A stretch of DNA of 14,446 nt, taken from a virus. The notes beneath the pieces are model-generated. The model had not been told where the DNA came from, did not search any database, and saw only the letters and a program-made list of their open reading frames with translations. The stretch's first letter is position 1, and the number at the start of each line of letters is the position of its first letter. Shown piece by piece: positions 1-14,446 of the stretch. Made by a program: the position numbers and the translations under genes. The stretch is taken from the UHGV virus genome UHGV-1642993; one strand, given 5' to 3'.

Positions 1-45
1 GGTGCTCTGCTCCCGTGGCGGGTTACTCTGCCTGCCTGACCAGCT

Positions 46-171
46 TCACTTCGTCAATACGGTTCTCACTGCACGCTTACGCTCATCAAACTGATCAAAG
101 AAGTTACCCTCTGCCGCTGGAGTTTCCGGTTGAGGGATGGCTTCATCAAATTGGTCGAAGAAATTCGCCAT
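46..171 (-). CDS. Small hypothetical protein (41 aa) with two perfect copies of the octapeptide NFFDQFDE; below the ORF-track size cutoff
   Basis: ATG at 171-169 sits 5 nt after a canonical SD (minus-strand TAAGGAGGGAGTA-ATG) that overlaps the stop of the upstream gene; TGA stop at 48-46. Translation: MANFFDQFDEAIPQPETPAAEGNFFDQFDERKRAVRTVLTK. The two repeat copies differ at 5 synonymous third positions and no nonsynonymous ones. Confidence 0.45.
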   Translation of the reverse strand: MANFFDQFDEAIPQPETPAAEGNFFDQFDERKRAVRTVLTK

Positions 172-181
172 TACTCCCTCC

Positions 182-1489
182 TTATGGGAGATAGCCGTAT
201 TTAGCTTTGAACTGAGACGCTAATGCCGGGTTTGCTTTCAGTGCCTGGATAGCTGCTTCCGGTGCTTGCCCTGTTGTGCCTGCCTTCTGCTGATCCTTCT
301 GTGATTTCCTTTCTGACACATATGTATCGTATCCCTGCGAGCTGTAGCCCATAGATTCAGCTTCGCGGGCCGCCACCTTTTGCAGTACAGAATATTGGCT
401 GCGAATTTCTCCAAGCTGCTTTTTCACCACGTCAGCTGGTTGTGTAACATCGAGGCGGGCGATCAGGTTTTCGAGCTTGCTTCCTTCTGCGTTCGAAAGT
501 GCTCCCAAGCCTCTGAGCATCTGAACGTTCTGAACGAAAGCGCCAGATTTCAGTTCCTCAATAGCGTTTCTGTTTTCCAGCCCTTCAGCAGAGGTCATGG
601 CGTCAGGGTAGCGACCTTCAACCCGACCGACGCCTGCCAGGTCTCCCTTGTTCATCAGAGAGTCAATCTTCTCGATCCCCCTCTCGCCAGTGATTAGCGC
701 TTCGTTATAGCCGTTATTTCCCTCGAGCCACTTTCTGGCCTGCCCCATTCGTGCTCCGGTTGCTGGCTTACCGGTTAAAGGGTCAATTCCTGTAGAGGCG
801 ATTTGAGAGTTTAACGACAGGGTGTCCATGTCCTGAACGTCGCCGTATTTTTTAAGCGCTGCCTGTGACTGCCTGTATACGTATTTATCGTGATTCAGAC
901 GAGCCATCTGAGCGCCATATGAGAGCTGCTGCCCCTGTCGCGTGGTGGCGTTCTGCATGTCAGCCTGGCGGGCGTCCTCCTTAAGTTCAGCTTCTTTCTG
1001 CTGCGCATCTACCTGCTTCTCAATAGGCATCGTTGCGTACATTGACGCTTTCAACAGGGAGCCGAACTGCTGCGGATCGTTATGAGCCATTTGAATGGCT
1101 TCCTGCGGATCAACCCCAAAGCTCATTAGAGCAGGCTTGTTTTGTTCTATCGCGGTCTGAATCATTGCCGGGTTGCCGGTTGCAGCCGCTATAGATATTT
1201 TGTTGAGCGCCTTATTAACAAACGTAGCGTGCTCGGCATCCTGAATGCCTATCTCTTTCTGGATGAGATCTGCAAACTCAGGATGCTGCATGCGCAGCGC
1301 TGGTAAATCCTCCGGCTTGGCATTCTGCAATGCTGTATATGCGGCCTGTTGCCGCTCCTGCTGCTGTGTCGCTGCATCCATCTCCTGAGAGGTTTGACGA
1401 ATTCCCTGAATTGCCCGCCCAGCAGTCAACCCCTGAAGCAACGCCCTGCCAGTTGATGCAGAGTAATCAATAGGTTCGACAACCATCAT
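182..1489 (-). CDS. Internal virion / DNA-ejection protein, P22 gp20-like by position and size (435 aa)
   Basis: Six-frame ORF with SD (GAGGTGA) before ATG-ATG at 1489; Q/A-rich, predicted helical; third gene after the tail needle, as in P22-like gene order 26-14-7-20-16. Assignment is by synteny and composition, not by recalled sequence identity. Confidence 0.6.
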   Translation of the reverse strand: MMVVEPIDYSASTGRALLQGLTAGRAIQGIRQTSQEMDAATQQQERQQAAYTALQNAKPEDLPALRMQHPEFADLIQKEIGIQDAEHATFVNKALNKISIAAATGNPAMIQTAIEQNKPALMSFGVDPQEAIQMAHNDPQQFGSLLKASMYATMPIEKQVDAQQKEAELKEDARQADMQNATTRQGQQLSYGAQMARLNHDKYVYRQSQAALKKYGDVQDMDTLSLNSQIASTGIDPLTGKPATGARMGQARKWLEGNNGYNEALITGERGIEKIDSLMNKGDLAGVGRVEGRYPDAMTSAEGLENRNAIEELKSGAFVQNVQMLRGLGALSNAEGSKLENLIARLDVTQPADVVKKQLGEIRSQYSVLQKVAAREAESMGYSSQGYDTYVSERKSQKDQQKAGTTGQAPEAAIQALKANPALASQFKAKYGYLP

Positions 1490-1502
1490 TCACCTCTAAT
1501 AT

Positions 1503-2099
1503 TTAGAAGAAGCCAGAGGCCACGCCACCAATTTGCATCAGCGAGTTGAAGCCAGATTGCGCCTTACCTGCTTTTGACGCGCCAATCTGGGCCATGTTAT
1601 TGCCATAGGCACTGGAGTAATCTCCAGCGGCGGCGTTGTTAGCACCTGCAGCTGACAGGCCGACGTTAGTCAGACCTAAAAGTTGCCCATACATATTATT
1701 CTGCTGATTGGTCATCATGTTCAGGTAGTTCTGTCCGAGTTGCGGCGCGATTGAACCGAGTAAATTACCCGTTGCCGTAGAGCCGAGACCTCCTGTTGCC
1801 TGTGCGGAGCGTAGAATGCTATTGCGAGCCTGATCTTCCTGCATCCGGTATTCTGGAGATGAAAAGTAATTAGACAAAGATAGATTTCTGTCGATTGGCT
1901 GACCAGCAATCCCCTGCAATCCCTTTAATCCAGAAAGACCAGCATTCAGGAATGGCTCATTTGTTTTTTTCTGATCCTGATAGATATTCCACGCCATTTG
2001 GTTGGAATCTCTCGCCGCACCAACCTGAGCGTCTGCGGCTTTATTGGCCCCGGTAATGCCGCCAACGACAGAATTTAGTGCTTTGCCGACAAAGCTCAT
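1503..2099 (-). CDS. Internal virion / DNA-ejection protein, P22 gp7-like by position (198 aa, Gly/Asn/Ala/Gln-rich)
   Basis: ORF start overlaps the upstream gene stop by 4 nt (2096-2099); low-complexity G/N/A/Q-rich sequence typical of ejection proteins; syntenic position. Confidence 0.55.
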   Translation of the reverse strand: MSFVGKALNSVVGGITGANKAADAQVGAARDSNQMAWNIYQDQKKTNEPFLNAGLSGLKGLQGIAGQPIDRNLSLSNYFSSPEYRMQEDQARNSILRSAQATGGLGSTATGNLLGSIAPQLGQNYLNMMTNQQNNMYGQLLGLTNVGLSAAGANNAAAGDYSSAYGNNMAQIGASKAGKAQSGFNSLMQIGGVASGFF

Positions 2100-2464
2100 A
2101 CGTACCTCACCATTTTAATTACGTTTGTTACGGTTCCATCGAGACGAGCGCCATCAAATTCGCATTCGTGCTCGAATCCCATTTTTCTTGCCAGGTTAGA
2201 GACGCGCCTGTATTGCTCTTCGATAAGCGCGTGAATTTCACGGTTACCGATTAATGCCAGCACATTAGAAACAGCATCCCGGCATCGGTGGCGTTCACCC
2301 GGTTTCATTGCCATGTGCAGGTCTACGTGGTCACCAAAATCCATACAGACGAAGACGCCGACGCCGTTCCAGAGCAGATGGTCACCTTCAACGAGGGGAA
2401 ACGATGGCACACCCCACAGGCGCATTAATCCCTGCCCGGTGAGAGCATCAATTTTTGTGAGCAT
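2096..2464 (-). CDS. Hypothetical virion-assembly protein in the gene-14 position (122 aa)
   Basis: ORF lies directly after the tail-needle gene (2-nt gap) and is coupled to the next gene by a 4-nt overlap; Cys/His-containing, no family recognised by eye. Confidence 0.5.
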   Translation of the reverse strand: MLTKIDALTGQGLMRLWGVPSFPLVEGDHLLWNGVGVFVCMDFGDHVDLHMAMKPGERHRCRDAVSNVLALIGNREIHALIEEQYRRVSNLARKMGFEHECEFDGARLDGTVTNVIKMVRYV

Positions 2465-2466
2465 GA

Positions 2467-3312
2467 TTACTGTTCCGCGATAATTTTGATGGTCGTGGCA
2501 GTGAATGCCGCGCCATTAGCCTTGATTGTTAACGTGCTGCCATTTGTTGCAAGGAAGCCGTTTTTATCAACGCTGAAGAATGTTGAAAGAAGGATATTGC
2601 TGGTAGTCGTTGCGGCATTTCTACTGTCTACCAACGTATCAGGAACCGCGCCAGAGAAGGTTAACTGCATTGATCGGTTAGTTGTTCCACCTGGGAATGT
2701 CCCAACGAGAGAGAGTTTAAAATTTAAAGTCTTGTTCTCGTTGTATACGATCATCTTGTCTGATGTAGTATTGAAGAATGGAGCAAGCGTTCCTGATGTA
2801 GGGGTTAACGCCTTAAGCATCGTAATCAGGTTTGTTGCGGTGGTAGGAATAACCTGTGATATTCCAGTGTAAATAACCTCCGATTTCTTACGTGTGGTGG
2901 CATACTCCAGAGCATCAATACGTGTTTCGTGATCAGCAACCTGTGTTTCAAGGCTAGTTACCCGTGTATCAAGCGATGATATGTTGCTCTCATTCTGGGT
3001 AATCCTAATCTCATGATCGGCTATCGAAACTTCAGCAGCACTAATGCGAGTTTCATGGTCAGCCAGTGTTACTTCTGCTGATGATATACGCTGCTCGTGA
3101 TCGGCAAGAGTGACATCCTGTTCATCGTTCTTAACCTGAGCGTCGTATGCCCCCTGACCAGCATCGTTGGCTTTATTGGCTACGTTGGTGAAGTCAAGCG
3201 CCTGAGACAGAATGTACTGCTGATAGGTTGGAGACAGGCCAATCGGTAGCGTTGATGCGCTAATCCTGATGGCGCTTACGCGAACCGGTGTTTTTAGTGA
3301 GTCATCAGCCAT
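2467..3312 (-). CDS. Tail needle protein (P22 gp26 family) with trimeric coiled-coil repeats and a C-terminal knob-like domain (281 aa)
   Basis: N-terminus (MADDSLKTPV..., KANDAGQGAYDAQVKNDEQDV) matches my recollection of P22 gp26; five tandem 14-residue repeats (VTLADHEQRISSAE-like) follow; a ~130-residue Thr/Asn-rich C-terminal extension is absent from the 233-aa P22 needle and resembles the knob of Sf6-type needles. Start shares 1 nt with the gp10-like stop. Confidence 0.8.
   Translation of the reverse strand: MADDSLKTPVRVSAIRISASTLPIGLSPTYQQYILSQALDFTNVANKANDAGQGAYDAQVKNDEQDVTLADHEQRISSAEVTLADHETRISAAEVSIADHEIRITQNESNISSLDTRVTSLETQVADHETRIDALEYATTRKKSEVIYTGISQVIPTTATNLITMLKALTPTSGTLAPFFNTTSDKMIVYNENKTLNFKLSLVGTFPGGTTNRSMQLTFSGAVPDTLVDSRNAATTTSNILLSTFFSVDKNGFLATNGSTLTIKANGAAFTATTIKIIAEQ
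2905..3114 (-). repeat. Five tandem 42-bp (14-codon) repeats encoding the coiled-coil shaft of the tail needle
   Basis: Protein repeats VTLADHEQRISSAE / VTLADHETRISAAE / VSIADHEIRITQNE / SNISSLDTRVTSLE / TQVADHETRIDALE; matching DNA periodicity (…cgtgatcagc…, …catgatcggc…, …catggtcagc…, …cgtgatcggc…). Confidence 0.6.
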
Positions 3313-4730
3313 TACTCAATCCTCACCGATAAACCGGAAAGCGTCACGGGCGACTTTGTTATCACCCTGAACTTAAAGGCGATGTTCTTTCTGACACGCC
3401 CTACATTTCGCCATATTGCCCGCTGGTCGTATCGGAATGGCGCATTCCATGGAATGAGTTGCTCACGACCAAAGTTGATACCATCCGTCATGGCAGAGAT
3501 AAACATTCGGTCTGCGGTCTGCGCTACTCCTGTTGCTGATTCAAGCTCAAGGTCAAACAACAATGCGTTATCGGCTTTGATAAGTGGCGTATACAACAGG
3601 TGCTCTTGTTGTTTTCCGTATTGACTACTTATTGCCGTATTCAGTTGCCCGGTCACCGCTTCCAGTTTGTCGCCGCAGGTTATCTGATTTCCTTCGAACA
3701 TAAAGTCGATGCCGCGATAAACATCATCATAAAGTCCGGTTTTCAGCACTGACCACTGCGGTCCGTTCTGGCTTGATGATGCGTCATATACGAGCACGTG
3801 ACGTGGAAGATGGATAATCAGCAATTCATGTGAGTCGAAGCGCAAAGGCTCCATAACTGCTGTTGCCAGTTCATCAGCCGTGTACTCACGCAGTGTCTTT
3901 TCAATCAGCGCGGTAGATATTGGCTTTGCTTCACCGGAATCAACGATACAGACAGAAGGTGCACCCGTTGCCTGGTTGGTAATAATTGCGAACGAGCCAA
4001 GGAATGCGCATTTGCAGAACATGCCCGCAATGCCTTTTGGTACCATGTACGCCGGGTTAGCAACGTAGATTGCGCCAGTCTGACCGTCATTTCCCGTCAG
4101 TGAGAAGTACTCGATGGTGGTCGTGCCAAAACAGACGATGAAATCACGCCACGCAGCAATTCCGACAATGCCATCTGGTTGGGACTCTGCCCGCATCATT
4201 GCGCCATAGCGATCCGGGTGTGACTCATCCTGAAGGTCGGAGATAAACCACGAGTCAGTGCCTGATTTCGTCCAGGCATAGTTACCCCGTGACTGACAAA
4301 TGTCACCTGCACTGCCTAATTCATATTGCAGATATCCGCTATTAGCAGGCCAGTTTGTTACCGTTTTAGTTGTGCCGTCATAGAGGTACTGAATCACCTG
4401 ACCGCCGACAACAACAGTCTGACTTGTCCGACTATGCGCCATCGGTACGCGACCGATTCCAGATACGCTGCCGACCTCAGCAGAGCCGCGATACAACTTG
4501 CCACCGCAGACGCGATATACAGCATTCTGAGAGGTGTTGTACTGCGCACCGCGCGATACTCCCGCCACATCTCCACGCTTCTCTATGCCCGGCATAGAGC
4601 GAAGATATCCAGACGCATTCATCACTTCTTTCGCTACTGCCAGCATATTGACTGGAAGCATGTCGATGTAATCAGCGTCTTTCGCGCTTTTACCAAGTCC
4701 ACGCATCAGTGGGATTTGCTGGGTTGGCAT
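3312..4730 (-). CDS. Tail hub / head-completion protein, P22 gp10 homolog (472 aa)
   Basis: Same length as P22 gp10 and extensive recalled similarity (NAVYRVCGGKLY, DSWFI.DL.DESHPDRY, HELLIIHLPRHVLVYDASSSQNGPQW, VITKSPVTLSG); syntenic between the gp4-like and needle genes. Confidence 0.9.
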   Translation of the reverse strand: MPTQQIPLMRGLGKSAKDADYIDMLPVNMLAVAKEVMNASGYLRSMPGIEKRGDVAGVSRGAQYNTSQNAVYRVCGGKLYRGSAEVGSVSGIGRVPMAHSRTSQTVVVGGQVIQYLYDGTTKTVTNWPANSGYLQYELGSAGDICQSRGNYAWTKSGTDSWFISDLQDESHPDRYGAMMRAESQPDGIVGIAAWRDFIVCFGTTTIEYFSLTGNDGQTGAIYVANPAYMVPKGIAGMFCKCAFLGSFAIITNQATGAPSVCIVDSGEAKPISTALIEKTLREYTADELATAVMEPLRFDSHELLIIHLPRHVLVYDASSSQNGPQWSVLKTGLYDDVYRGIDFMFEGNQITCGDKLEAVTGQLNTAISSQYGKQQEHLLYTPLIKADNALLFDLELESATGVAQTADRMFISAMTDGINFGREQLIPWNAPFRYDQRAIWRNVGRVRKNIAFKFRVITKSPVTLSGLSVRIE

Positions 4731-4738
4731 AAATTACC

Positions 4739-5200
4739 TCATGTTGCCGGGTCGTCTTTCTCGATGTAAAAACGGTTCCATGTGAATGCTGATTTGTTAC
4801 CTGAACCTCGAGGCATGTCGTTACGGCGTTCGAGTGGCGGAACGGTGATTAGAGCGATGCAGATTGTCTGATATGCGTCGTCAGCTGCGGTTAACAGGCC
4901 ATCAGGAGCAGGTCGCAGGTTGTCCATGCAGATTTGAACGGCGAGTTTCAGTGATACACCGTCGTTAGCCCACGCTGGAATGCCGGAATCATCATCTGGA
5001 TGTGGCATAACTCCATTTGCTGAGTCTGCAAACTGGTATCCAATTTCAATGCCTTTAACCTGCCACGCAGCCATCATGTCTTCGAGGTCGTTAATAGCAT
5101 CCTCTATAGACTGCGGCTCTGCATCGGTAAGCGTAGCTTTGGAATAAAGACCGGCTTTTCTCAGCGCTTTGAGGACTAAATCACCCTTTGTCTTCGCCAT
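4739..5200 (-). CDS. Tail accessory / head-completion protein, P22 gp4 homolog (153 aa)
   Basis: N-terminus KTKGDLVLKALRK...ATLTD.EPQS..DA..DLE.MMA.W and a C-terminal MPRGSGN motif resemble P22 gp4 as recalled; SD (AAAGGCGGA) before the ATG. Confidence 0.8.
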   Translation of the reverse strand: MAKTKGDLVLKALRKAGLYSKATLTDAEPQSIEDAINDLEDMMAAWQVKGIEIGYQFADSANGVMPHPDDDSGIPAWANDGVSLKLAVQICMDNLRPAPDGLLTAADDAYQTICIALITVPPLERRNDMPRGSGNKSAFTWNRFYIEKDDPAT

Positions 5201-5405
5201 TTTGTTCCGCCTTTGGTTTTGGCCCTGGCTTCTTCTTTGCTGCTGGCTCTGGCTCTGGCTCTGGCAGGACAGTATCGTCTGGATGCTTCACCCAGCCTTT
5301 ATCCAGATGCTCATCCACATCATCCTCATCAACAATGATGTAATCCAGCGAGTGAGGGCCGCAGGTTATCATCGAGCCAAGCTTATAAAGCATTATTTGA
5401 GACAT
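5181..5405 (-). CDS. Small acidic hypothetical protein with PEPEPEP and a Lys/Pro-rich tail (74 aa)
   Basis: ATG at 5405 preceded by GGGAG; sits directly after the coat-gene terminator hairpin; 3' end overlaps the gp4-like start by 20 nt. No recognisable domain. Confidence 0.5.
   Translation of the reverse strand: MSQIMLYKLGSMITCGPHSLDYIIVDEDDVDEHLDKGWVKHPDDTVLPEPEPEPAAKKKPGPKPKAEQNGEDKG
5243..5266. repeat. Hexanucleotide tandem repeat (CTGGCT)x3 plus one variant unit, in frame within the 74-aa ORF
   Basis: Plus strand ctggct-ctggct-ctggct-ctggca; encodes PEPEPEPA on the minus strand. Confidence 0.7.
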
Positions 5406-5416
5406 TGCGTTCTCCC

Positions 5417-5441
5417 AAAAAAGAAGGGGCCGAAGCCCCTT
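5417..5441 (-). terminator. Intrinsic terminator / attenuator directly after the coat gene
   Basis: Minus-strand transcript: AAGGGGC-UUCG-GCCCCUU (7-bp GC-rich stem, UUCG tetraloop) followed by CUUUUUU; begins 3 nt after the coat TAA stop. Confidence 0.65.
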
Positions 5442-5444
5442 AGA

Positions 5445-6704
5445 TTACTGGTTAGCCAGTACCAGGCCGGTAAACTCTGGAACCAATACACTTGCGCCAG
5501 CCAGCGTGGTGAATCGCGTCCACGTCTTACCTGCTTTGGCATCGAACTGGTAAGCCATGATGATGGTCGCCCCCTGCTCGGTAGTTGCCGTCATAACCTG
5601 CGGGCCCTGCCCGGTCGGGAATGCCAGCTTGCCGTACATCAGCTCTACAGAGCCCTCAGCAAAGAAGATGTTGGAAGCCGCAGCCTTCTTGTTGAGAATG
5701 GTGATCGCCGCGTTATTCGCCGGATTGGCGGTAACGTTCTGGTAAGGAATAGACGGCGCATCAGCGTTGTTTGGTGGCAGAATTTTCGGGCTGATGGTAA
5801 CGGTGGTGCCATTTACCGCCAGGACGCGGAATACCTGCGACTGGCCTGTATCCACCTTCTTGATCATGTGGACACTATTAACGCCTGCGATAGTGAATGC
5901 ATCACCAACAGCCAGCACGCCAGCAGTAGACACGGTGATGTCGCCCTGACGGTTATCAGTAGGTGCGCCGTTGGAGTCCATTGCGGTAACTTTATGCGCT
6001 ACTGCGCCACCAAGAGTTACGGCGGTGGCAGAACCTGCCTTCATCGCGCCAGCATAATCAACACGGAAGCTGTCGAAGGATGCCACAGGTGGGATCTGAG
6101 CTTTCTCATACGCCGTCAGCGTTGCGCCAACTGCATATGCGCGAGAGCCAAGCTCTTTAGCCAGGTCTTTGTAGTTGAACGGGTTGTAGAACGCTTTGCG
6201 CTGCCCACCCTGCGGCACACCAATAGAGAGCATCATTGCGTCAATGCCTGCAGATGCGTTCCAGAGGTCTTCGCCGAGAGTATTGCCGGTTGATGCCGAA
6301 CCAATGGTGACCATGTTGGTAGCGCGGGCGGCCACCTCATCGACGATCAGGTTATCAACCCACGCTGCCAGCTGACGACCCGCCGCTTTACCAGCTTGCT
6401 CCTTATGCCATGGATCGCGCATTTCTTTTGCGTCCAGCTCGTAGATAACGTTTTCTGGCTCGCGGAAACGCACAGGTACCTGACGCTGAACGAGTGAGTT
6501 TGCAGTTGCTGCGGTCAGATCTAGGCCGCTAACGGTTTTCAGATGGTAACCTTGAGGGCGATAAACTACGTCGCCTGCGCGTTGCATTTCAGTGTCGCCC
6601 GGGCGGAACTTGCTGCACTCACGGGATACTACGTTTGATGCCTCGAATCCATCAATGACGTTTTCAAATAGGATTTCAAGGTCTTTAGTTAACTGATTAG
6701 GCAT
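5445..6704 (-). CDS. Major capsid (coat) protein, P22-like phage of non-P22 sequence type (419 aa)
   Basis: Large ORF directly after the scaffold gene with SD (CGGAGC) and an A-rich leader, followed by a terminator; size fits Sf6/CUS-3-type coat proteins. Not similar to the P22 coat sequence as I recall it, so the call rests on synteny. Confidence 0.75.
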   Translation of the reverse strand: MPNQLTKDLEILFENVIDGFEASNVVSRECSKFRPGDTEMQRAGDVVYRPQGYHLKTVSGLDLTAATANSLVQRQVPVRFREPENVIYELDAKEMRDPWHKEQAGKAAGRQLAAWVDNLIVDEVAARATNMVTIGSASTGNTLGEDLWNASAGIDAMMLSIGVPQGGQRKAFYNPFNYKDLAKELGSRAYAVGATLTAYEKAQIPPVASFDSFRVDYAGAMKAGSATAVTLGGAVAHKVTAMDSNGAPTDNRQGDITVSTAGVLAVGDAFTIAGVNSVHMIKKVDTGQSQVFRVLAVNGTTVTISPKILPPNNADAPSIPYQNVTANPANNAAITILNKKAAASNIFFAEGSVELMYGKLAFPTGQGPQVMTATTEQGATIIMAYQFDAKAGKTWTRFTTLAGASVLVPEFTGLVLANQ

Positions 6705-6724
6705 ACTTTTTTAGCTCCGATGGA

Positions 6725-7621
6725 TTATTTTTTAGCTTTATTCTTCGCCGCTCGGTATGCGGTGTAATCACCGGTGGCGCGCGCTTTTTCGAGAAGTTTG
6801 TCGAGATTATTAATTGCAGCGCCATTGCTCCCTTTAACCTCAGGAGTGGTAGCGGCTGTTGTTTTTGCTTTAGGCATGATTCTGGCCTTTGATTCGATAC
6901 GTTCCAGCAGACGACCAATTGCTACGGGGTTGGTAGCTTCTGCCAGTTGCTTGCGCAGTTCAGCGTTGCGACCAAGCGCCAGAACAACGATTTCCGGCTT
7001 CTCTGACTCAAACAGGATCGAGTTTTGTGTCTCGATGGGGATTTCCTCGAGTACGGCCTGCTCAGCTTCCTGATAGCCAGGAACTTTGAGAGCCTTAACA
7101 CGTTGCTGATATTTGGATAATCGCTGTTGATAGGCAGCCTGAAGCTCCTGCTCCTTCTGCTTGCGAGCCATCTCCTGTTGCTGGTACTTGCCGTTATCCT
7201 CTGCCCACTTAGCCATGCGTTGCTGGTAGATTTCTTCATCGAAACCGATGTCCTCATCGTCCAGTTTTGGCATTCGCGGTGGTTGAGTGATTACCGGCTG
7301 CTGCTCGACGGGTTTCTGAGACTGACGCATCAGCTCTTTCAGCTCGCGGTCTTTCTCTTTAATCGTCTTGCGCAGGTGTTTTACCAGTCCATGCTCTGCG
7401 CTATCTTCGCTGGTTGGCGAATCCAGCTTTTCGTCACCAAAGTAGAATTCCTGTTCTGATTCGTCGTCATCAGTTTCAGTAGCTTCCTCTGCATCATTGC
7501 CAGAGGACTCACTGCCATCTTCTGTTTCGACTTCTTCAGCCAGTTCGACATCATCAGGAATCTGCTCTGACGCGTCGGTTTCGATTTCAACTTCTGGTGT
7601 GTTTTCTGCCATCTGTTCCAT
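6725..7621 (-). CDS. Scaffolding protein (298 aa)
   Basis: Between portal and coat genes; strongly acidic N-terminus, central charged helical/coiled-coil region (KEKDRELKELMRQ..., QQEMARKQKEQELQAAYQQRLSKYQQRVKALK), basic C-terminal helix-turn-helix-like end (GDYTAYRAAKNKAKK) resembling the coat-binding end of P22 gp8. Confidence 0.75.
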   Translation of the reverse strand: MEQMAENTPEVEIETDASEQIPDDVELAEEVETEDGSESSGNDAEEATETDDDESEQEFYFGDEKLDSPTSEDSAEHGLVKHLRKTIKEKDRELKELMRQSQKPVEQQPVITQPPRMPKLDDEDIGFDEEIYQQRMAKWAEDNGKYQQQEMARKQKEQELQAAYQQRLSKYQQRVKALKVPGYQEAEQAVLEEIPIETQNSILFESEKPEIVVLALGRNAELRKQLAEATNPVAIGRLLERIESKARIMPKAKTTAATTPEVKGSNGAAINNLDKLLEKARATGDYTAYRAAKNKAKK

Positions 7622-7711
7622 TTGTTACCCCTGTTTACTCGATGTTCAGCCCATCGGAAGGCAATAGGGTGCCAGGCCTCATAAAGACAGCCATTGCACG
7701 TTATGGGTTAA

Positions 7712-9916
7712 TTACTGCTGTGGTTGTTGCTGAGTTGATTTTTGCAGGATGCTGCTGATGTCCATGCGCTGCGCATGGCCCTGTGCCTGACTTTTCAGGA
7801 CAAGCTCTGCATCAGCACGGGCATTATCTCCTTGCTGTTGCTGGAACTGTCCGAGCAGTTTCAGCGCCTCACGGATATCAGATTTTTGCTGGCTATCGGC
7901 AGATGCGAGGATTTTCACAACATTTGCCGCAGCAACCTGAGCATCCGTCTGTGCCTGGAATGCTTTAACCTGAATGGCTGCTTGTTCGTTCTGCGCTTTC
8001 TGCAATTCAGCCTGACCAGCAAGAAGCTGACCTTGCGCAGCAACCATAGCCGGATCTGGCTGACTGGCCTGTTGTTGTTTCGCCTGCTCAACCATCTGCT
8101 GTTCTTCTGGTGTTCTCGGCTTAATAACGCCAGACAGAAGCAACTGATTGCGGTTGTATTCTTTAAGGTCGTCCATCCCTTCGCCGTCCATATTGTCGAG
8201 AATCATCGACGATACAAGGTCATGCTTCGGCGTTCCTGGCGGGATAAGTGCCAGCATGGAAAGCAACGACTTAACCGTTGCATCACGGCGAGTAGCGAAC
8301 GACTGACCGACATCGACAGTCACTTCATAGTTACCCTGCGAAAGGTCGTTAAGCGCGATAACCTTCCCTGTCTGACGGTCAACCACTTCACCAGTCATCA
8401 GCGCCACGTCATCGCTGCCATCCTCATTAACGATGCGCATTGGCGTATCGCTGCCATAGACTTCACGAGCCATAGAAAGCCACACGACGCCAGCACGGCG
8501 CATGGATTTAGCCATGTTGTCCATGTAGATATAGGACTGCGTGTCCATCCGGTTAAAGATGCTATCAACGGTATCGGTAGCGACGTTGCTCGGCATGTTC
8601 TCAAGCTGCGACGCACCTGTAATTTGCTGAATAGCCGTTCCGGTGTACTGCAATAGCCCGGCAAGAGCAGGAGGCATTTGTGTCGGAGGTGTCCAGCCAG
8701 CAACCTGAGCCTCTGAAATGACCGTTCCGTTTTTGTCCTTCTTGCTGGTCATGGGAAGAACTGCAGGTCTTTTCTTATTCCTCTCTGCCCAGTGATTCAT
8801 TAATGGACCGGGAATGAAATCAACATCCACGATAGGAATGCCATCACCGCCAGCCTGAGTAGCATTATCTGCAATCATGGAAACCATCAGGTTCTCAAGA
8901 CGCTGTGCATCCATCGCTTTTGCTGCGTGGCCTTCGATTCGCTCCTGATTATCAACAAATGAACGACGCCCATATACCGGGATGAGAGGAATATGTTCGC
9001 CCGGAATACGCTTCGGTTCTTCCAGCCATTCAGCGCCAGACAGAAGACCGCAATAAACTCGGCGTTTCTTCACCGTTCGCTCGCCAATCAGTTCGAATGC
9101 ACCATCGGTCAGCTCGTCGACAATATCTTTGATTTGCTCTTCATCATAGATTGCCGTTTCTCCGCTGACAGGGTTACGCCATGCTGTGAGCTTCACCTTC
9201 TCTATGCGGACTTCGTAGTAGCGTCCAACATAGATGGCATCAGGCGTTGACCAGTCATATTGAGTACCAGTGTCATCACGAGAAAGACTTGCCGCGATGG
9301 AATCAGGGTATTCAGCCTCGAACGCTTTATGCGTCATGGAGAACATTTCCATAGCCCACATAGCATCAGAGCGGTCATATTGCTTGCTGTCCTGATCGAA
9401 GAAAACGCATGTCGCTGGGTCGTAAACAGGAAGAAGGCTGATGCGTCGCTGCTCGTTACTCGGATCCATTTCATCTTCGTAATCGGCACACATGCGGAAA
9501 CAACCGAATCCGCCCGTTACAGCATCATCAAATGCGTTATCACACGCTTCGCCACCGGATGTTTCCTGATAGTCAGCGCGGAATTTGCCGTTCATCTTTT
9601 CGGCTAACGCTTCCGATGCCTTATCGTCCTTAGGCCTGAATTTAACGCTGATGCGATTCTGTCGATACTCGCCAATGATGCGATCACATTCACGGGCAAT
9701 CTTATTCAGTTCAAAGCGCGGGTAATGCTCAAACCTGCCTTCATCAAATGAGTAACCAGCGTTTGTGCTGCCTTCCCACTGTGCGCCGGACACCCGGACG
9801 AAACGTTGAGCCTCAATAATCTGCTCACGCATATCCTTCGTTGCTGACCAGGCATTATCAAAGTTGCACAGCACCTTGCGATGCCAGTCAGTCATCTTTC
9901 TATCATCAGCCATCAT
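7712..9916 (-). CDS. Portal protein (P22 gp1 family, diverged; about 734 aa)
   Basis: Motifs shared with the P22 portal as recalled (KRRRVY, GEHIP..PV.G, PRTPEEQQ, DPAMV.AQGQLLAGQAEL.KAQN helical barrel); the ATG at 9916-9914 overlaps the terminase TGA stop (ATGA) and is preceded by GGAG; the track's TTG at 9928 is less likely. Confidence 0.9.
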   Translation of the reverse strand: MMADDRKMTDWHRKVLCNFDNAWSATKDMREQIIEAQRFVRVSGAQWEGSTNAGYSFDEGRFEHYPRFELNKIARECDRIIGEYRQNRISVKFRPKDDKASEALAEKMNGKFRADYQETSGGEACDNAFDDAVTGGFGCFRMCADYEDEMDPSNEQRRISLLPVYDPATCVFFDQDSKQYDRSDAMWAMEMFSMTHKAFEAEYPDSIAASLSRDDTGTQYDWSTPDAIYVGRYYEVRIEKVKLTAWRNPVSGETAIYDEEQIKDIVDELTDGAFELIGERTVKKRRVYCGLLSGAEWLEEPKRIPGEHIPLIPVYGRRSFVDNQERIEGHAAKAMDAQRLENLMVSMIADNATQAGGDGIPIVDVDFIPGPLMNHWAERNKKRPAVLPMTSKKDKNGTVISEAQVAGWTPPTQMPPALAGLLQYTGTAIQQITGASQLENMPSNVATDTVDSIFNRMDTQSYIYMDNMAKSMRRAGVVWLSMAREVYGSDTPMRIVNEDGSDDVALMTGEVVDRQTGKVIALNDLSQGNYEVTVDVGQSFATRRDATVKSLLSMLALIPPGTPKHDLVSSMILDNMDGEGMDDLKEYNRNQLLLSGVIKPRTPEEQQMVEQAKQQQASQPDPAMVAAQGQLLAGQAELQKAQNEQAAIQVKAFQAQTDAQVAAANVVKILASADSQQKSDIREALKLLGQFQQQQGDNARADAELVLKSQAQGHAQRMDISSILQKSTQQQPQQ

Positions 9917-11409
9917 CCAACTCCGCAAGGTATGTTGTAGCTTGAGTAATCAATCTCTTTAGGATCTTTGATGTCTCGCATCTGTATTGCAAAACGCCTC
10001 ATCATGTAGCCATAGCGAACAGCAGAAAGGATGTCGTCATTTAGCTTGACGATCTTCCCGTTCTCATCGCGGTGATACAGACGAAACTCTTCAAAGAATG
10101 GCTCGCAGGTGTTAAATACCTTGAAACGACCGTCGAGCATCATGTCGCGTATCTCTGCTATCCCGGGTTCGACCGCATTACCTCCATCAGGCCATGTTGC
10201 ATGATCTGGCAACATGTCGAACCCAGCTTCGGCGTATTGTTCCTTGAGCTGAGCGCCGCCTCCCTTTTCGTGCTGATGCCCGTCATGAGGCCAAGCCGTA
10301 GGGGTGTTTTTGCTCCATGCTTTAACAGCACTCCATGCCTCTGTCGCCTTCTTCTGTTTGGCCTTCCAGACGCGAGAAAGATAAATCACGTCCTCGTCTT
10401 TATCCCACCAAAGCTGGATATGTGCCTGTGGGTGATCCCATCCGAAGTCCATTGCATTGATGACGTAGAAGTGATCAGGACACTCGAACGGCTGACACTT
10501 AATCGTCTCTTCCGGTATCTGGAAGATTCGACCGCTACCCATCGTAGGAATACCGCGAGCACGCGCCTCTCTCTCGTGCTCGGGATAGGATGCGATGATT
10601 TGCTCTTTCTGCTCGTCGGTATAGTGCTCAGCATCATAGATGGTCATGTTGACCACTTTCTGCGACTTGCTGGGATTCTTCAGGAACTTGGTAACAACGT
10701 CAGACATCCCCATCAGCGGGGTAAACGTCAGAATTGAGAATTGCCCGTATTTGTTGGTACGGGTAAGACCTTCGCCATAAATGCTGTATGGTGGCTCTTC
10801 GTCAAACCACACGCCGTGGATTGTGTCACCCTGCCAGCGAGCACGGCCTTGAGAGTATGGTTTGAAGTAGCAGATTGAAATGCCATCTTCAACGCCATCA
10901 GCCGTGTGATGCTTAACCAGAAGATGATCAACAAGGTTCGGAAAGAAAGGAGACTTCTTCCAGCTAATGATGTCCTCTTTCGGTATGGAACCGTAGCCAG
11001 GCTCGTCATTCTCTTCGATACGACCGCACAGGATGCGTTGAGTCGTTTTGGTTACAGTCTCGTTTGTCTCGCCACCAATCCAAAAGACAACAGGCTCATA
11101 GAAACGCTTACCTTTCCACTCACCGCCATATTTACCATCAGCAGGATAGCCTTTTGTGCCCGGATAACGCCCTGTAAGGTGAAACGCGACTTCAGCAGCA
11201 CCAGTAAATGACTTACCAAGCTGGTTACCAGCCATAAAACATCGCTCTGGATAGTCATGTCCGGCGTCGATGAACTCACGCTGTTTGCTGTATGGCGTAA
11301 ATTCATATAGCAGGTGTGTGTTCCGGTAGTTCTCTTCTTCTTCGAGTAGCTCGAGCAATTCGATTTGCTCTTCGTCGCTCAGGTTATCAAGAATCGCGTC
11401 CAGTTCCAC
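9913..11409 (-). CDS. terL: Terminase large subunit, P22 gp2-type (498 aa)
   Basis: N-terminus [37 protein letters not shown] and Walker A segment AGNQLGKS match P22 gp2 as recalled; GTG start at 11409 with AAGGAG upstream; overlaps terS by 23 nt. Confidence 0.95.
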
Positions 11410-11881
11410 GGTTGAATAGCTCCTTGATACGAGAGCGCCGCTTATCGCGATCTCCCTTATCAGGTGTCACGTCTTCAACTTGCGACTGCTCTTTGAGGCC
11501 CAAATCACGGGCGATGATGTTAGCGTTGAGAAGGTCAGCGGCTGCGCCAGAGAATTTCTGATCGTAGATGATGTCTTCCGCTCGTGATGTGACGTCAGAA
11601 AAACCTTCCATTGACCGGAAGGTTCCCCATGTTTGCCTGGTGATATCAAGGAAGGTACACAATCCTGAAATAGTCATGGCTCGCATCTTAGGGACATTAG
11701 CCTTAATTATTTCTCCCTGATATGAAAATACCTTGCCCTCCCATAGCGGGTTATCATCAGCCCACTCGAAGTATTCACAACAAGCAGCCCACAGCGCCTC
11801 AGGCGATTCGAATTTAGGGTTTCGCCCATGACTACTGCGGGCCTCCCAAAATCGGTTGCCCTTTGGTGCTGCCATATCCAT
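11387..11881 (-). CDS. terS: Terminase small subunit, P22 gp3-type (162-164 aa)
   Basis: [38 protein letters not shown]... and C-terminal [56 protein letters not shown] match P22 gp3 as recalled; two candidate ATGs (11881, 11875). Confidence 0.9.
11587..11608 (-). other. Candidate pac (packaging initiation) site inside terS, diverged from the P22 pac sequence
   Basis: Minus-strand GAAGGTTTTTCTGACGTCACAT (encoding EGFSDVTS) occupies the position where P22 gene 3 carries its pac site (recalled as GAAGATTTATCTGAAGTCGTTA, encoding EDLSEVV); 14 of 22 positions match. Contains the palindrome TGACGTCA. Confidence 0.4.
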
Positions 11882-11910
11882 CTCACTTATTTGTTATTTC
11901 AGGTTGAGCA

Positions 11911-12153
11911 TCATGCTCCGGTGGTGAACAGGTCTAACGCTTCCTTCGATTTACGTACCGCTTCGATAGTGCGGGTCGTGATATCTGAATTAGCGCCGCC
12001 TGACTGGAAGTGAATTTTGAATAGCTCAAGCTTCAACTCGTCAGTACCAATGAACTGAAATGCTTCCTCTGCGGCTGCGTTCTGGTTCATGACCAGTTTG
12101 TAAATCTCTAACTGGAATTTCTGTTCTTCAGTCATGGGAATAATCTCTGCCAT
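11911..12153 (-). CDS. Small hypothetical protein (80 aa) directly upstream of terS
   Basis: ATG at 12153 with GGAG 8 nt upstream; predicted helical, acidic; same position as the small conserved ORFs that precede gene 3 in P22-like phages. Confidence 0.5.
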   Translation of the reverse strand: MAEIIPMTEEQKFQLEIYKLVMNQNAAAEEAFQFIGTDELKLELFKIHFQSGGANSDITTRTIEAVRKSKEALDLFTTGA

Positions 12154-12256
12154 TGTTGGCTCCGTTTATCCGTTAAAAGGGATATCAGTTAAGTTATCCC
12201 GTGTAGGGTATAAGCCATTATCAAAGCCACTCTGTAGGGAATGGCTTTTGTAATAA

Positions 12257-12514
12257 CTACTTCGTTTTTGCTTCCGCTCTTTTACGGCGGCGCTCTTCTT
12301 TCTTCTCGGCGTTTGCCATGTCCATGAATGCCTGCATGATCGAGTTCCTCATCATGTAACTGACAAAGTGATGATTGACGCAGCCGTTGAGACGGAGTTG
12401 CTCGCCAAACTGATCAACCGAGGCCAGCACTTGCATCATGTCCTTCTCACCTTTCATGAACTCAGAGAAGTCGCGCCCCGCTCTGGAAGCGCATTCAATG
12501 ACGCGATTATTCAT
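12257..12514 (-). CDS. Small hypothetical protein (85 aa) with a basic C-terminal tail (KKEERRRKRAEAKTK)
   Basis: ATG at 12514 overlaps the upstream TGA stop (ATGA coupling); no recognisable domain. Confidence 0.45.
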   Translation of the reverse strand: MNNRVIECASRAGRDFSEFMKGEKDMMQVLASVDQFGEQLRLNGCVNHHFVSYMMRNSIMQAFMDMANAEKKEERRRKRAEAKTK

Positions 12515-13062
12515 CCTGGAAGCCCTGGGATCGTAATCTGCAGCTGGTTAGCCAGGGTATTAATCTCAGCGACCAATACAGGCTTCGTATAACGCCATGC
12601 AGCAAGTCCTTGTCCGCAGAAGCTCGCCATGTCCTTCTTCTGGTCAAACTCATGGCACTTCATGTTGAGCTGCGCACTTAAGCTGTTGCGATGCTGAAGC
12701 TCTCCGGTGAAGTAGTCATCGAGGACCTTATATGCCGCGTACTTGAAACCGGGGTTTAACCAGGCAGCATAATCGTAAGCAACAAACTTCCCGCCATAGG
12801 TTCCGCCGTGTACGCCGCGGGCAGTAAAAACCACAGATTCGTGGTTTTTCTCCAGCTCGGCCAGGAACTCTTTGGTCTGCTTGTTTCGCAGATAGTGGTA
12901 AGGCGATTCAGCATCACTTTTGCCACTGGCTTTCCACATATCGGTGAGGCAGATCATGCCGTCTTCTCCGACACGGATTGGTTGATTGAAGAGGGTTAAT
13001 GATTTCATTTCGCTGATACCTTTTGGTGGTTGAGCCTGTTCTCGTAGATATGGGCAGCCCAA
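12511..13062 (-). CDS. KilA-N-like domain protein (183 aa from TTG at 13062; 165 aa from the internal ATG at 13008)
   Basis: N-terminal segment IRVGEDGMICLTDMWKASGKSD....YLRNKQTKEFLAEL fits the KilA-N DNA-binding pattern as I recall it; first ORF after the lysis-cassette terminator. Confidence 0.5.
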   Translation of the reverse strand: MGCPYLREQAQPPKGISEMKSLTLFNQPIRVGEDGMICLTDMWKASGKSDAESPYHYLRNKQTKEFLAELEKNHESVVFTARGVHGGTYGGKFVAYDYAAWLNPGFKYAAYKVLDDYFTGELQHRNSLSAQLNMKCHEFDQKKDMASFCGQGLAAWRYTKPVLVAEINTLANQLQITIPGLPG

Positions 13063-13157: not shown

Positions 13158-13181
13158 AAAAAAGCCCCGCTATTGCGAGGC
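13158..13181 (-). terminator. Intrinsic terminator at the end of the lysis cassette, overlapping the Rz1 stop codon
   Basis: Minus-strand transcript: GCCUCGC-AAUA-GCGGGGC (7-bp stem including one G-U pair; the Rz1 UAG stop lies in the loop) followed by UUUUUU. Confidence 0.5.
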
Positions 13182-13493
13182 TCTTGATGATTCGATTTTC
13201 CTGATTGCTGCCTTATCCAGATTGCACTGCCCTAGCGCCGTATAGAGCTGAGCGTTCAACTCCAGACTTGCCTGCCACGTGAACGGAACCGCCATTCCGG
13301 GGATCGGCGTGTCTGCTGTCAGGTCAGCGCTTATCGGCACCACCGGGGCCGGAACGTAAACTGTTTTCGTATTCCCGCAGGCTGTCAGCAGCGGCAGAAG
13401 GAACAAGCTGGTTAGCACACGGATCGCCTTCAAGCGCCTGCCTGATGTAGACAATGCGCGTCTCGCCTTTTTTGGCCAGTTCGTTCTTTGCAT
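13170..13493 (-). CDS. Rz1: Rz1-like o-spanin (outer-membrane lipoprotein), in the +1 frame overlapping the 3' part of Rz
   Basis: Lipobox LLPLLTAC followed by a Pro-rich mature region (VYVPAPVVPISADLTADTPIPGMAVPF). The ORF's ATG at 13493 would give a 39-residue leader; an in-frame TTG at 13433-13431 gives a typical 19-residue lipoprotein signal (MKAIRVLTSLFLLPLLTAC). Confidence 0.7.
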   Translation of the reverse strand: MQRTNWPKKARRALSTSGRRLKAIRVLTSLFLLPLLTACGNTKTVYVPAPVVPISADLTADTPIPGMAVPFTWQASLELNAQLYTALGQCNLDKAAIRKIESSRASQ

Positions 13494-13710
13494 TCTGGGT
13501 AGCCTGTGAGATGTCGCGGATGAGGTTCATCGTGGTGATCACGTTTCTGGTGATCGCCTCCGATGTGTCTGCCCTGACCGTCGCCTTATCGCGCTGGTCT
13601 TTGTAGGTGATGGCGTTGTCGCGGTAGTGGTTTACGAATAAAACCAGCACGCCGATTAACGCCAGCACCAGCAACTGTAGCCAGTAACGCTTAACCAGCG
13701 CGCCAATCAC
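13324..13710 (-). CDS. Rz: Rz-like i-spanin (128 aa)
   Basis: N-terminal signal-anchor TMD (WLQLLVLALIGVLVLFV) then a charged periplasmic helical domain; GTG start overlaps the lysozyme TGA stop (GTGA); directly downstream of the lysozyme gene. Confidence 0.75.
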   Translation of the reverse strand: MIGALVKRYWLQLLVLALIGVLVLFVNHYRDNAITYKDQRDKATVRADTSEAITRNVITTMNLIRDISQATQNAKNELAKKGETRIVYIRQALEGDPCANQLVPSAAADSLREYENSLRSGPGGADKR

Positions 13711-14147
13711 GACAGGAACAGAGCGCGCTCCGCCTCACGCCGACGGGTCAGCCCATTCAGGACCTTGCCACCTGCTTTATTCCAGCGCAGGAACTCATCG
13801 GCTGCGCCAGCGTAATCACCGGCGTTGAGTTTTCGCAGGAGAGTCGATGTCGATAAAGATCGGGCTCCGAGGTTATAGGTGAACGACACCAGGGCGTCGA
13901 ATTGCCCCTGAGTCAGACCAACTTTAACCAGGCGAGACACGTCGCTTTCGTAGCTGACAAGTCCGGTCTTCAACAGGCGCTCTGCCGTTTCCTGATTAAT
14001 TGTCATACCGGCACGGATCGGTTTACCGTCGACAGGCTGAGTCCAGCCATAGCCAATCGTCCACACTCCGACGCTGTCCTGGTACGCGGTAAGCTTGCAG
14101 CCTTCGAACTCTTTGATCAGGGCAATGCCTTTATCACTGGTTTGCAT
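13707..14147 (-). CDS. Endolysin, T4-type lysozyme (glycoside hydrolase family 24), P22 gp19-like (146 aa)
   Basis: Catalytic-region pattern LIKEFEGCKLTAYQDSVGVWTIGYG (Glu, Asp, Thr triad spacing) and C-terminal RRREAERALFLS match the P22 lysozyme as recalled; SD (GGGGA) before ATG; overlaps the holin stop by 14 nt. Confidence 0.9.
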   Translation of the reverse strand: MQTSDKGIALIKEFEGCKLTAYQDSVGVWTIGYGWTQPVDGKPIRAGMTINQETAERLLKTGLVSYESDVSRLVKVGLTQGQFDALVSFTYNLGARSLSTSTLLRKLNAGDYAGAADEFLRWNKAGGKVLNGLTRRREAERALFLS

Positions 14148-14439
14148 TCTTCATCCCCGTCAGACGTTCCCAGAAATAGGTCAGAGCCACGGAGCCCATC
14201 GCCCCGCTAATGCCTGACGTAACCAGAATCATGTAAAGGCTCAGCCCACTTTCAACGCTGATCAGTCCACCAATGAGACCGGTAAAGCCGGACACTGCAA
14301 TTTGTGCCAGCGCATTAATCCAGCTCCAGGTGGCTTTGTTCTGCTTAACGTCAATAAGGTATCGGACCAGGCCGCCCCAGCATGACAGAGCAAGGACAAT
14401 CAGCCATGACACTCCGGCAATGCTTTCTTTATCTTGCAT
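14134..14439 (-). CDS. Putative holin with three predicted transmembrane segments (101 aa; 5' end may lie beyond the window)
   Basis: Three hydrophobic stretches (IAGVSWLIVLALSCWGGLV, WSWINALAQIAVSGFTGLIGGLI, LSLYMILVTSGISGAMGSVALTYFW) and a short charged C-terminus; directly upstream of the lysozyme gene. The reading frame stays open to the window edge. Confidence 0.7.
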   Translation of the reverse strand: MQDKESIAGVSWLIVLALSCWGGLVRYLIDVKQNKATWSWINALAQIAVSGFTGLIGGLISVESGLSLYMILVTSGISGAMGSVALTYFWERLTGMKNANQ

Positions 14440-14446
14440 ACGTTTA

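Follow-up and report, generated by a model that had tools for sequence, protein, structure and literature searches.

Mosaicism of the late operon, including exchange of the terminase genes, is well documented among P22-like phages according to PMC8022706, which cites Casjens & Thuman-Commike 2011 for it, and exchange of domains within the small terminase subunit (TerS) has also been noted (PMC4669245). Two features of the large subunit (TerL) of P22, gp2, are of particular relevance. The first is the nuclease domain, which starts at residue 313 (PMC11728703), and the second is a basic C-terminal tail: gp2 lacking residues 483–499 fails to bind the procapsid portal (Lokareddy et al. 2017, PMC5290284), and the tail is stated in the same work to be conserved in all P22-like phages. 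Here we describe the UHGV virus genome UHGV-1642993, a stretch of 14,446 nucleotides (nt) referred to throughout as the window, in which a P22-type terminase lies beside a portal and scaffold of the type found in phage CUS-3. A mosaic of this kind is textbook phage biology and ordinary for the P22-like group, and as phages with this terminase-portal join have been sequenced before, its recognition adds little. The useful part is the position of the seam, where the body of TerL gives way to its tail only a few codons from where the segment corresponding to P22 residues 483–499 begins.

The window is the late region (lysis, packaging, head and ejection) of a P22-like prophage. Its substantial genes all lie on the minus strand in the open reading frame (ORF) map, as do all of the features located below, and their order in that one direction, TerS-TerL-portal-scaffold-coat-gp4-gp10-gp26-gp14-gp7-gp20, is the P22-like architecture as judged from the ORF map and Pfam. 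Each of the late genes except gp14 has a homologue in P22, CUS-3, Sf6 or HK620 by tblastn. We consider it likely, with a probability of roughly 0.78, that this region derives from at least four sources, that its seams fall inside the 3′ ends of the upstream genes, and that a C-terminal peptide thus stays with the downstream partner.

Affinities of the packaging, head and ejection genes

Each gene was compared by tblastn with the genomes of P22, CUS-3, Sf6 and HK620 (for the coat, absence of a match refers to a threshold of E≤1e-3). TerS (11387–11881) is of the P22 gp3 type (PF16677 GP3_package, E=8.6e-31) and is 81.7% identical in amino acid sequence to P22 gp3, and TerL (9913–11409) is 91.8% identical to P22 gp2 and contains the Terminase_6N (PF03237, E=1.3e-47) and Terminase_6C (PF17289, E=1.7e-26) domains of a P22-type terminase enzyme; neither subunit has a match in CUS-3, Sf6 or HK620. 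The portal (7712–9913; PF16510 P22_portal, E=6e-170) is 96.7% identical to that of CUS-3, 56% to that of Sf6 and 34% to P22 gp1, and the scaffold (6725–7621) is 95.5% identical to that of CUS-3 and 33% to that of Sf6, with no BLAST match in P22. The major coat protein (5445–6704; PF11651, the P22 coat fold family, E=8e-71) is 67% identical to the CUS-3 coat and 29% to that of P22, has no match in Sf6, and is 95% identical to the coat of a prophage in Escherichia coli EC6622. Both the portal and coat matches exceed the curated Pfam cut-offs, identifying these as P22-family proteins. The coat sits on the CUS-3 branch, apparently as a separate subtype with its own scaffold C-terminus, and its nearest relatives by sequence are in Citrobacter and in a small share of the prophages of E. 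coli.

Further along, gp4 (4739–5200) is 85.6% identical to its CUS-3 counterpart, 44% to that of Sf6 and 41.5% to that of P22. The identity of gp10 (3312–4730) is 71.4% to P22, 70.6% to CUS-3, 71.5% to Sf6 and 71.4% to HK620, and the needle (2467–3312; 281 amino acids) has an Sf6-type knob domain (PF16532) and is 72% identical to Sf6 gp9 across its whole length.

Identity is thus not uniform to any one reference phage across terminase, portal, scaffold and coat. A preliminary description of this DNA had proposed just such a mosaic, with TerS and TerL close to P22 gp3 and gp2, a portal unlike gp1, a needle with an Sf6-like knob, and a scaffold resembling gp8 at its C-terminal end alone, and these elements are borne out; in the case of the scaffold, it is the last ~22 residues that align with the C-terminus of gp8. 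Other elements need amendment. The portal-scaffold-coat module had been likened to Sf6 and CUS-3 together, but only the CUS-3 half of that label is appropriate, and it applies to portal and scaffold; the procapsid module is not of the Sf6 type, and the needle alone is Sf6-like. The coat had been described as having no evident similarity to P22, and although its identity to the P22 protein is indeed low, it is a member of the same family and much closer to that of CUS-3.

The seam inside terL and the tail that accompanies the portal

Seams were mapped using sliding-window nucleotide identity, megablast and blastn alignments, and exact mismatch maps. The upstream edge of the terminase cassette is at 11909–11913, just past the DUF2560 gene (orf80, 11911–12153; Pfam PF10834), and alignments to all four references start there. 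Because orf80 is 94–100% identical in P22, CUS-3, Sf6 and HK620 regardless of which terminase type is present, it appears to be the upstream homology flank of the cassette. Within TerL, the N-terminus, ATPase domain and linker (residues 1–317; 10459–11409) are identical to P22 gp2 at 311 of 312 aligned residues, and the nuclease domain (approximately residues 318–485; 9955–10458) falls to 77% amino acid and ~62–88% nucleotide identity, being a diverged allele of the P22 family. This first switch in identity coincides with residue 313, at which the nuclease domain is reported to begin (PMC11728703).

Identity changes abruptly again at the terL-portal junction. Alignments of P22 and of phage IME10 end at 9954–9956, and the CUS-3 alignment reaches 9951 from the other side and goes no further; the downstream seam of the terminase therefore lies at 9951–9956, 13 codons inside terL. 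To the left of it, nucleotide identity to CUS-3 is ~99% over 6900–9899 (93–100% in each 100-nt window, except for two windows in a patch within the portal gene, at ~8700–8900). What remains of terL (9913–9951) encodes a 12-residue C-terminal tail and the stop codon. The CUS-3 TerL, although unrelated, ends in a tail (QPDYSSYSIPCGVG) that shares 11 of these 12 residues, and the tail of the window is unlike that of P22, IPAPIRPVRRGR. The C-terminal end of P22 TerL is KKIPAPIRPVRRGR, also given as PKEKKIPAPIRPVRRGR, and when the window TerL is compared with P22 residues 483–499 (IRKPKEKKIPAPIRPVRR) only 5 of 17 positions are identical. As the domains are those of P22 and the basic tail is not present, TerL is a chimera of a P22-type enzyme body with a CUS-3-type tail.

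These positions differ from those in the preliminary description, which had placed one breakpoint at 9913–9930, in the overlap of terL and portal, and a second around coat and gp4, with P22-like sequence resuming at gp10. The first is displaced by ~25–40 nt, which matters biologically because the last 12 terL codons belong with the portal type and not with the P22-type body of the enzyme. At the second there is no return to P22-type sequence; the seams on that side are at ~6860–6890 and ~5290–5330, and the affinity of gp4 is to CUS-3 (86%, against 41.5% for P22). Breaks at the originally proposed places would suit a P22-like terminase next to a portal that is not P22-like, and a gp10 that is 71% identical to P22, but gp10 is equally close to CUS-3, Sf6 and HK620 and so marks no return to P22. 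Together with the alignment ends at 9951–9956, this refutes the earlier placement in its details, and we regard it as scarcely credible.

The relationship between tail and portal was examined in IMG/VR, where 80 loci were gathered for each of three portal types, and the association as a whole spans ~270 loci. CUS-3-type portals are accompanied by a DYS tail, on 25 TerL bodies of the P22 family and 70 of the Terminase_3 family. P22-type portals are accompanied by an IPAPIRP tail, carried by 60 bodies of the P22 family and by 14 of a third kind. Sf6-type portals are accompanied by a YVPSSSGW tail at 81 loci, with Terminase_3-family bodies; Sf6 and HK620 themselves end in ETEIYVPSSSGW and have the same TerL body as CUS-3 (Terminase_3). 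In three families of TerL body, then, the type of tail goes with the type of portal. Related DYS tails are also found in Murrayvirus phages, in which the portal is ~52% identical to that of CUS-3, and at two loci (L290 and L292) where it is 79% identical. In the loci examined here the P22 basic tail adjoins P22-type portals only, and the statement that it is conserved in all P22-like phages (PMC5290284) would therefore be limited to phages with such portals.

The comparison with IME10 (NC_019501) is especially informative. It shares the TerL body with the window (94% identity over 485 amino acids), including the same allele of the nuclease domain, but it has a P22-type tail, a P22-type portal (78% identical to that of P22) and a P22-type coat (72%). 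Since the body is shared and both tail and portal differ, this pair singles out the tail as the part of TerL that changes when the portal does.

The third TerL body is ~486 amino acids long (L104, L106, L114 and 11 more IMG/VR loci) and has no Pfam-A match at E≤0.01. It keeps an SPNxADAL motif near the C-terminus, ends in the P22-type tail IPAPIRPVRRGR, and is found with P22-type portals.

Two loci that initially appeared to break the tail rule were discarded as exceptions. In one of them (L291) the contig is frameshifted, and the tail is actually of the CUS-3 type. The other (L046, IMGVR_UViG_2541047701_000005) has an IS21 insertion, with the IstB gene upstream of the portal; this gene, for an IstB-like ATPase of the IS21 family, stops ~100 nt short of the portal start, in the usual place of the terL 3′ end, and the packaging region of this prophage is probably disrupted.

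At the nucleotide level the tail has diverged considerably. Nine of the 12 tail codons differ synonymously between the window and CUS-3, and 13 of 39 nucleotide positions differ, while the peptide is kept at 11 of 12 residues; this points to an old exchange followed by purifying selection on the peptide. It also bears on an alternative in which the last terL codons travel with the portal because they hold its ribosome-binding and translational-coupling signals, such that the constraint is on nucleotides. The terL stop codon does overlap the portal start (ATGA), and there is a GGAG within the last four terL codons. However, the amino acids have been retained over diverged nucleotides, which counts against constraint on the nucleotides only, as in the case of a ribosome-binding site; such a site would in any case explain ~4 codons and not 12–14. 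We consider this explanation very improbable. From the tail/portal association and the published P22 deletion data we infer that these ~12 residues act as a portal-docking peptide that sets portal specificity.

Two other departures from the surrounding identity were seen in the terminase and portal genes. First, the middle of the TerS gene (~11550–11750, residues ~44–110) is 60–78% identical to P22 in nucleotide sequence, and its flanks are 92–100% identical. The P22 pac site lies inside gene 3, and the TerS allele of the window may consequently have a different packaging-site specificity. Second, a patch of the portal gene at ~8650–8800 (approximately residues 372–421) is ~63% identical in nucleotide sequence to CUS-3, E212 and VR50; in the sibling contigs L016–L020 the 200-nt window that holds it is 78–79% identical, and the patch is 100% identical to the EC6622 prophage and to L021 and L022. 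By sequence comparison this would be a mosaic patch inside a portal gene that is otherwise 93–100% identical.

Seams around the coat block and the spread of the joins

The body of the scaffold (approximately residues 1–250; 6873–7621) is of the CUS-3/E212 type and 95–100% identical to both in nucleotide sequence, with the last near-identical stretch ending at 6872–6890. At ~6860–6890 the identity to CUS-3 and E212 falls from ~99% to ~65–70%, and left of 6870 it is about 63–82%; this diverged part begins within the scaffold 3′ end (6725–6872), the last ~49 codons, ending in NNLDKLLEKARATGDYTAYRAAKNKAKK. The C-terminal segment of P22 gp8 is a coat-binding helix-turn-helix. Among the loci compared, the scaffold end LLEKAR(A/D)TGDYT(A/E)YRAAKNKAKK always occurs with a window-type coat (18 loci, with scaffold bodies 63–100% identical) and the end KAKALETGDWTPYFAAKKAKK always with a CUS-3-type coat (75 loci), such that the C-terminal variant follows the coat subtype in 93 of 93. 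The edge of the diverged block is inside the scaffold 3′ end (~6800–6890) in three sub-lineages, represented by the window, the EC6622 type and locus L293. On the other side of the coat, megablast matches to EC6622- and VR50-type prophages end at 5287–5326 within a 74-amino-acid ORF (5181–5405; phrog_1175) that is 59.5% identical to its homologue in these prophages, giving a further seam at ~5290–5330. A candidate seam in the N-arm of the coat, suggested by megablast ends at 6484, 6538 and 6574, was rejected, as these ends are X-drop extensions through ~70% identical sequence and the blastn edge is at ~6870. Similarly, positions 1–6700 give no megablast match against the phage collection, despite matches of the full window that reach 6538 by such extension.

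The terminase-portal join is widespread. The phages E212, EC.P3 and JEP4 match the window from 6538 or 6574 to 12232 (to 11875 in JEP4) at 95–96% nucleotide identity by megablast, and many complete E. coli chromosomes contain 6538–12261 as one piece at 95–97% (megablast against 5,426 complete genomes). In these three phages and in numerous prophages of E. coli the join itself is present at 95–100% identity, and 323 contigs are on record as encoding exactly this TerL protein. By these comparisons the join appears to be inherited, old and not special to the window.

The situation to the left of ~6870 is quite different. Sibling contigs that encode an identical gp10 and are 100% identical over ~1000–6870 carry either of two terminase types, the P22 type in L016, L018 and L020–22 and the CUS-3 type in L017 and L019, and the segment of L017 and L019 that does not align is exactly 9952–11915. 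The first mismatches of the siblings are all at 6872–6890, except that L021 and L022 have a single stray mismatch at 6770, and the scaffold 3′ end and coat are recorded as 100% identical in all sibling contigs. The left block, ~1000–6870, is likewise 100% identical among contigs of several samples unrelated to one another, and the right part differs by 2–5%; the scaffold body of L019 is only ~70% identical to that of the window. Two of the siblings, L021 and L022, hardly differ from the window as far as ~11400, fall to 72% at 11601–11800, and have an extra 162-amino-acid ORF upstream of TerS.

These contigs also speak to whether the window could be a metagenomic assembly chimera of two co-occurring prophages. 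The exact coat protein is found in metagenome-derived contigs only (ENA, Logan), as might be expected of such an artefact, but four independent contigs from different samples (L008–L011) are 99–100% identical across the seams, an NCBI assembly contig (L021, GCA_020345525.1) is identical from 81 to ~11400 save for three single-base differences by the scaffold seam, and complete genomes as well as isolated phages have the terminase-portal join. The probability of a chimera is vanishingly small.

The origin of the left half points to Citrobacter. Positions 1–5290 match nothing in the phage collection above ~70% nucleotide identity (the references being at ~68–70%), no megablast place in the 5,426 complete E. 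coli genomes extends left of ~5287, and no carrier was found among species-representative genomes scanned with the coat. Proteins of the left half, whose hosts were taken from protein cluster membership, are present in a few E. coli draft genomes. Their nearest named relatives are from Citrobacter, at 97.6% for the coat (Citrobacter sp. Cf097), 98% for gp10 and 99% for a 122-amino-acid ORF, and the coat variant of E. coli is only 93–94% identical to that of the window. With no match in E. coli chromosomes left of ~5287 and the nearest relatives in Citrobacter, the window is best read as a Citrobacter-type coat-to-ejection block joined within the scaffold gene to an E212-like terminase-portal-scaffold segment of E. 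coli. The patterns of identity further suggest that the left block is clonal and recently introduced, and lies beside DNA that exchanges freely with the prophages resident in E. coli; with no close partner left of ~6870 in the E. coli prophage pool, the left block would stay clonal.

The data establish that the region is a mosaic, where its seams lie, and that tail and portal types are associated. The best account of them is that recombination, both homologous and illegitimate, brought together DNA of at least four sources. The first is a P22-type cassette of TerS and the TerL body, extending from the DUF2560 gene to 13 codons before the terL stop; the second a CUS-3/E212-type segment from the TerL tail through the portal to approximately codon 250 of the scaffold gene; the third a coat block of the last ~49 scaffold codons, the coat and part of the 74-amino-acid ORF; and the fourth a Citrobacter-type block with head-completion and ejection genes (182–5200). 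The terminase-portal join would be old and the seam at ~6870 a recent one in the lineage of the window, with DNA to the right of ~6870 recombining freely with the large pool of CUS-3-like prophages in E. coli. The two best-mapped seams are inside the 3′ end of the upstream gene and not at a gene boundary, so that a C-terminal peptide stays with the downstream gene whose product the P22 equivalent contacts: in TerL the ~12-residue tail would travel with the portal, and in the scaffold the gp8-like C-terminal segment would travel with the coat. Selection for compatible contacts probably keeps the terL seam upstream of the tail.

Several points weigh against this account or limit it. First, the independent exchanges behind the tail/portal association are few, roughly 4–6, and as the loci sampled for each portal type are close relatives, the raw counts overstate the support. 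Second, portal docking by the CUS-3-type and Sf6-type tails is deduced from sequence comparison. Third, all of the siblings break at ~6872–6890, exactly where homology to the E. coli CUS-3-like prophages ends, and the ~6870 seam can be explained as the limit of homology with that pool. Fourth, the coat of L293 is 98% identical to that of the window, yet its scaffold has a third C-terminal variant in which leucine replaces the residue aligned with P22 R293. The same coat thus tolerates a different scaffold C-terminus, which weakens any proposal of strict residue covariation between the scaffold helix-turn-helix and the coat; the coupling between the two is weaker, and is a linkage of blocks. 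Finally, Casjens & Thuman-Commike 2011 may already describe these boundaries; a phrase search of the literature for covariation with portal type returned only papers on the liver portal.

Much of this would be expected if the seams were neutral accidents, with crossovers at short similarity or at the limit of homology, and linkage reflecting shared ancestry. Nonetheless, tail and portal agree across three families of TerL body that are unrelated or very distantly related, the tail differs with the portal between IME10 and the window in spite of the 94% identical body, its peptide has been kept through silent change in most of its codons, and deletion of the P22 tail abolishes portal binding (PMC5290284). 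We therefore consider neutrality unlikely overall, and possible mainly for the scaffold seam. With assembly from several sources and retention of the peptides still preferred, we also put forward a broader generalization, although only tentatively: that the last ~12 residues of TerL form a portable docking peptide of at least three types (IPAPIRPVRRGR, DYSSY(N/S)IPCGVG and EIYVPSSSGW), swapped apart from the enzyme body across three TerL families, and that seams are shifted as a rule into the 3′ part of the gene upstream such that partners are kept together, the scaffold C-terminus with its coat being a further case.

The remaining parts of the window are less closely connected with these seams. 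A terminator-like hairpin and T-run (5424–5441) is GC-rich and lies directly past the coat gene, beginning 3 nt beyond its stop codon, and the annotations of Sf6 and HK620 also have terminators in this position. At the left end, gp7 (1503–2099) and gp20 (182–1489) follow the needle gene and the 122-amino-acid ORF (2096–2464); gp16 is outside the window and is seen in sibling contigs. The 122-amino-acid ORF is at the position of gp14, has no Pfam match and no tblastn match to the gp14 (DUF2824) of P22, CUS-3, Sf6 or HK620, and belongs to phrog_17333, to which no function is assigned there. It looks like a non-homologous replacement of gp14; this is one accessory gene, and its absence leaves the P22-like membership of the window unchanged. 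To the right of orf80 are an 85-amino-acid ORF (12257–12514) and a KilA-N-like ORF (12511–13062), followed by a lysis cassette of overlapping Rz/Rz1-type spanins (13324–13710 and 13170–13493), an endolysin (13707–14147) that is 49% identical to P22 gp19, and a holin (14134–14439; phrog_785). The lysis cassette (13170–14446) has a G+C content of 55–58%, against ~50% elsewhere in the window, and has no close counterpart in the reference phages, and so would appear to be a further module of separate origin.

Comparison with described phages

The phages most similar to the window are E212 (MZ043897), EC.P3 (PQ657771) and JEP4 (MT740315), which share its TerS and TerL at 98.8–100% amino acid identity together with a CUS-3-type portal and scaffold. 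E212 is 93–100% identical in nucleotide sequence over 6900–12260, except in two 100-nt windows at ~8700–8900 (63% and 88%). The three phages differ from the window in having a CUS-3-type coat (67% identical to that of the window), the CUS-3 scaffold C-terminus, and a needle without a full-length match to the Sf6-type knob, and left of ~6870 they are only ~70% identical in nucleotide sequence. CUS-3 (CP000711) resembles the window in portal (96.7%), scaffold (95.5%), gp4 (85.6%), the TerL tail (11 of 12 residues) and gene order, but it has a Terminase_3 TerL with an Sf6-type TerS, neither with BLAST similarity to those of the window, and its coat is 67% identical. P22 (AF217253) shares TerS (82%), TerL residues 1–317 (311/312), the nuclease family (77%) and gene order, and differs in its tail, IPAPIRPVRRGR, its portal (34%) and coat (29%), the absence of a scaffold match, a needle without the knob, and its gp14 family.

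The window shows a Citrobacter-type structural block in E. coli prophages that apparently stays clonal while the adjoining E. coli-type segment keeps recombining. The switch from TerL body to tail also provides a rule for motor-portal compatibility that lends itself to direct testing, as in the engineering of hybrid phages or packaging systems. If true, a simple sequence rule would predict which terminases are compatible with which portals, and, if not yet described, it would correct the published view that every P22-like phage retains the basic tail.

A classical parallel is found in the cos phages lambda and 21. In studies of lambda/21 hybrids by Frackman, Siegele & Feiss in 1984 and Wu, Christiansen & Feiss in 1988, both cited in PMC4669245, the extreme C-terminus of TerL reportedly carried the specificity for binding the prohead or portal. 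That work was genetics with hybrids; the chimeras described here are natural ones in headful-packaging P22-like phages and are known from their sequences.

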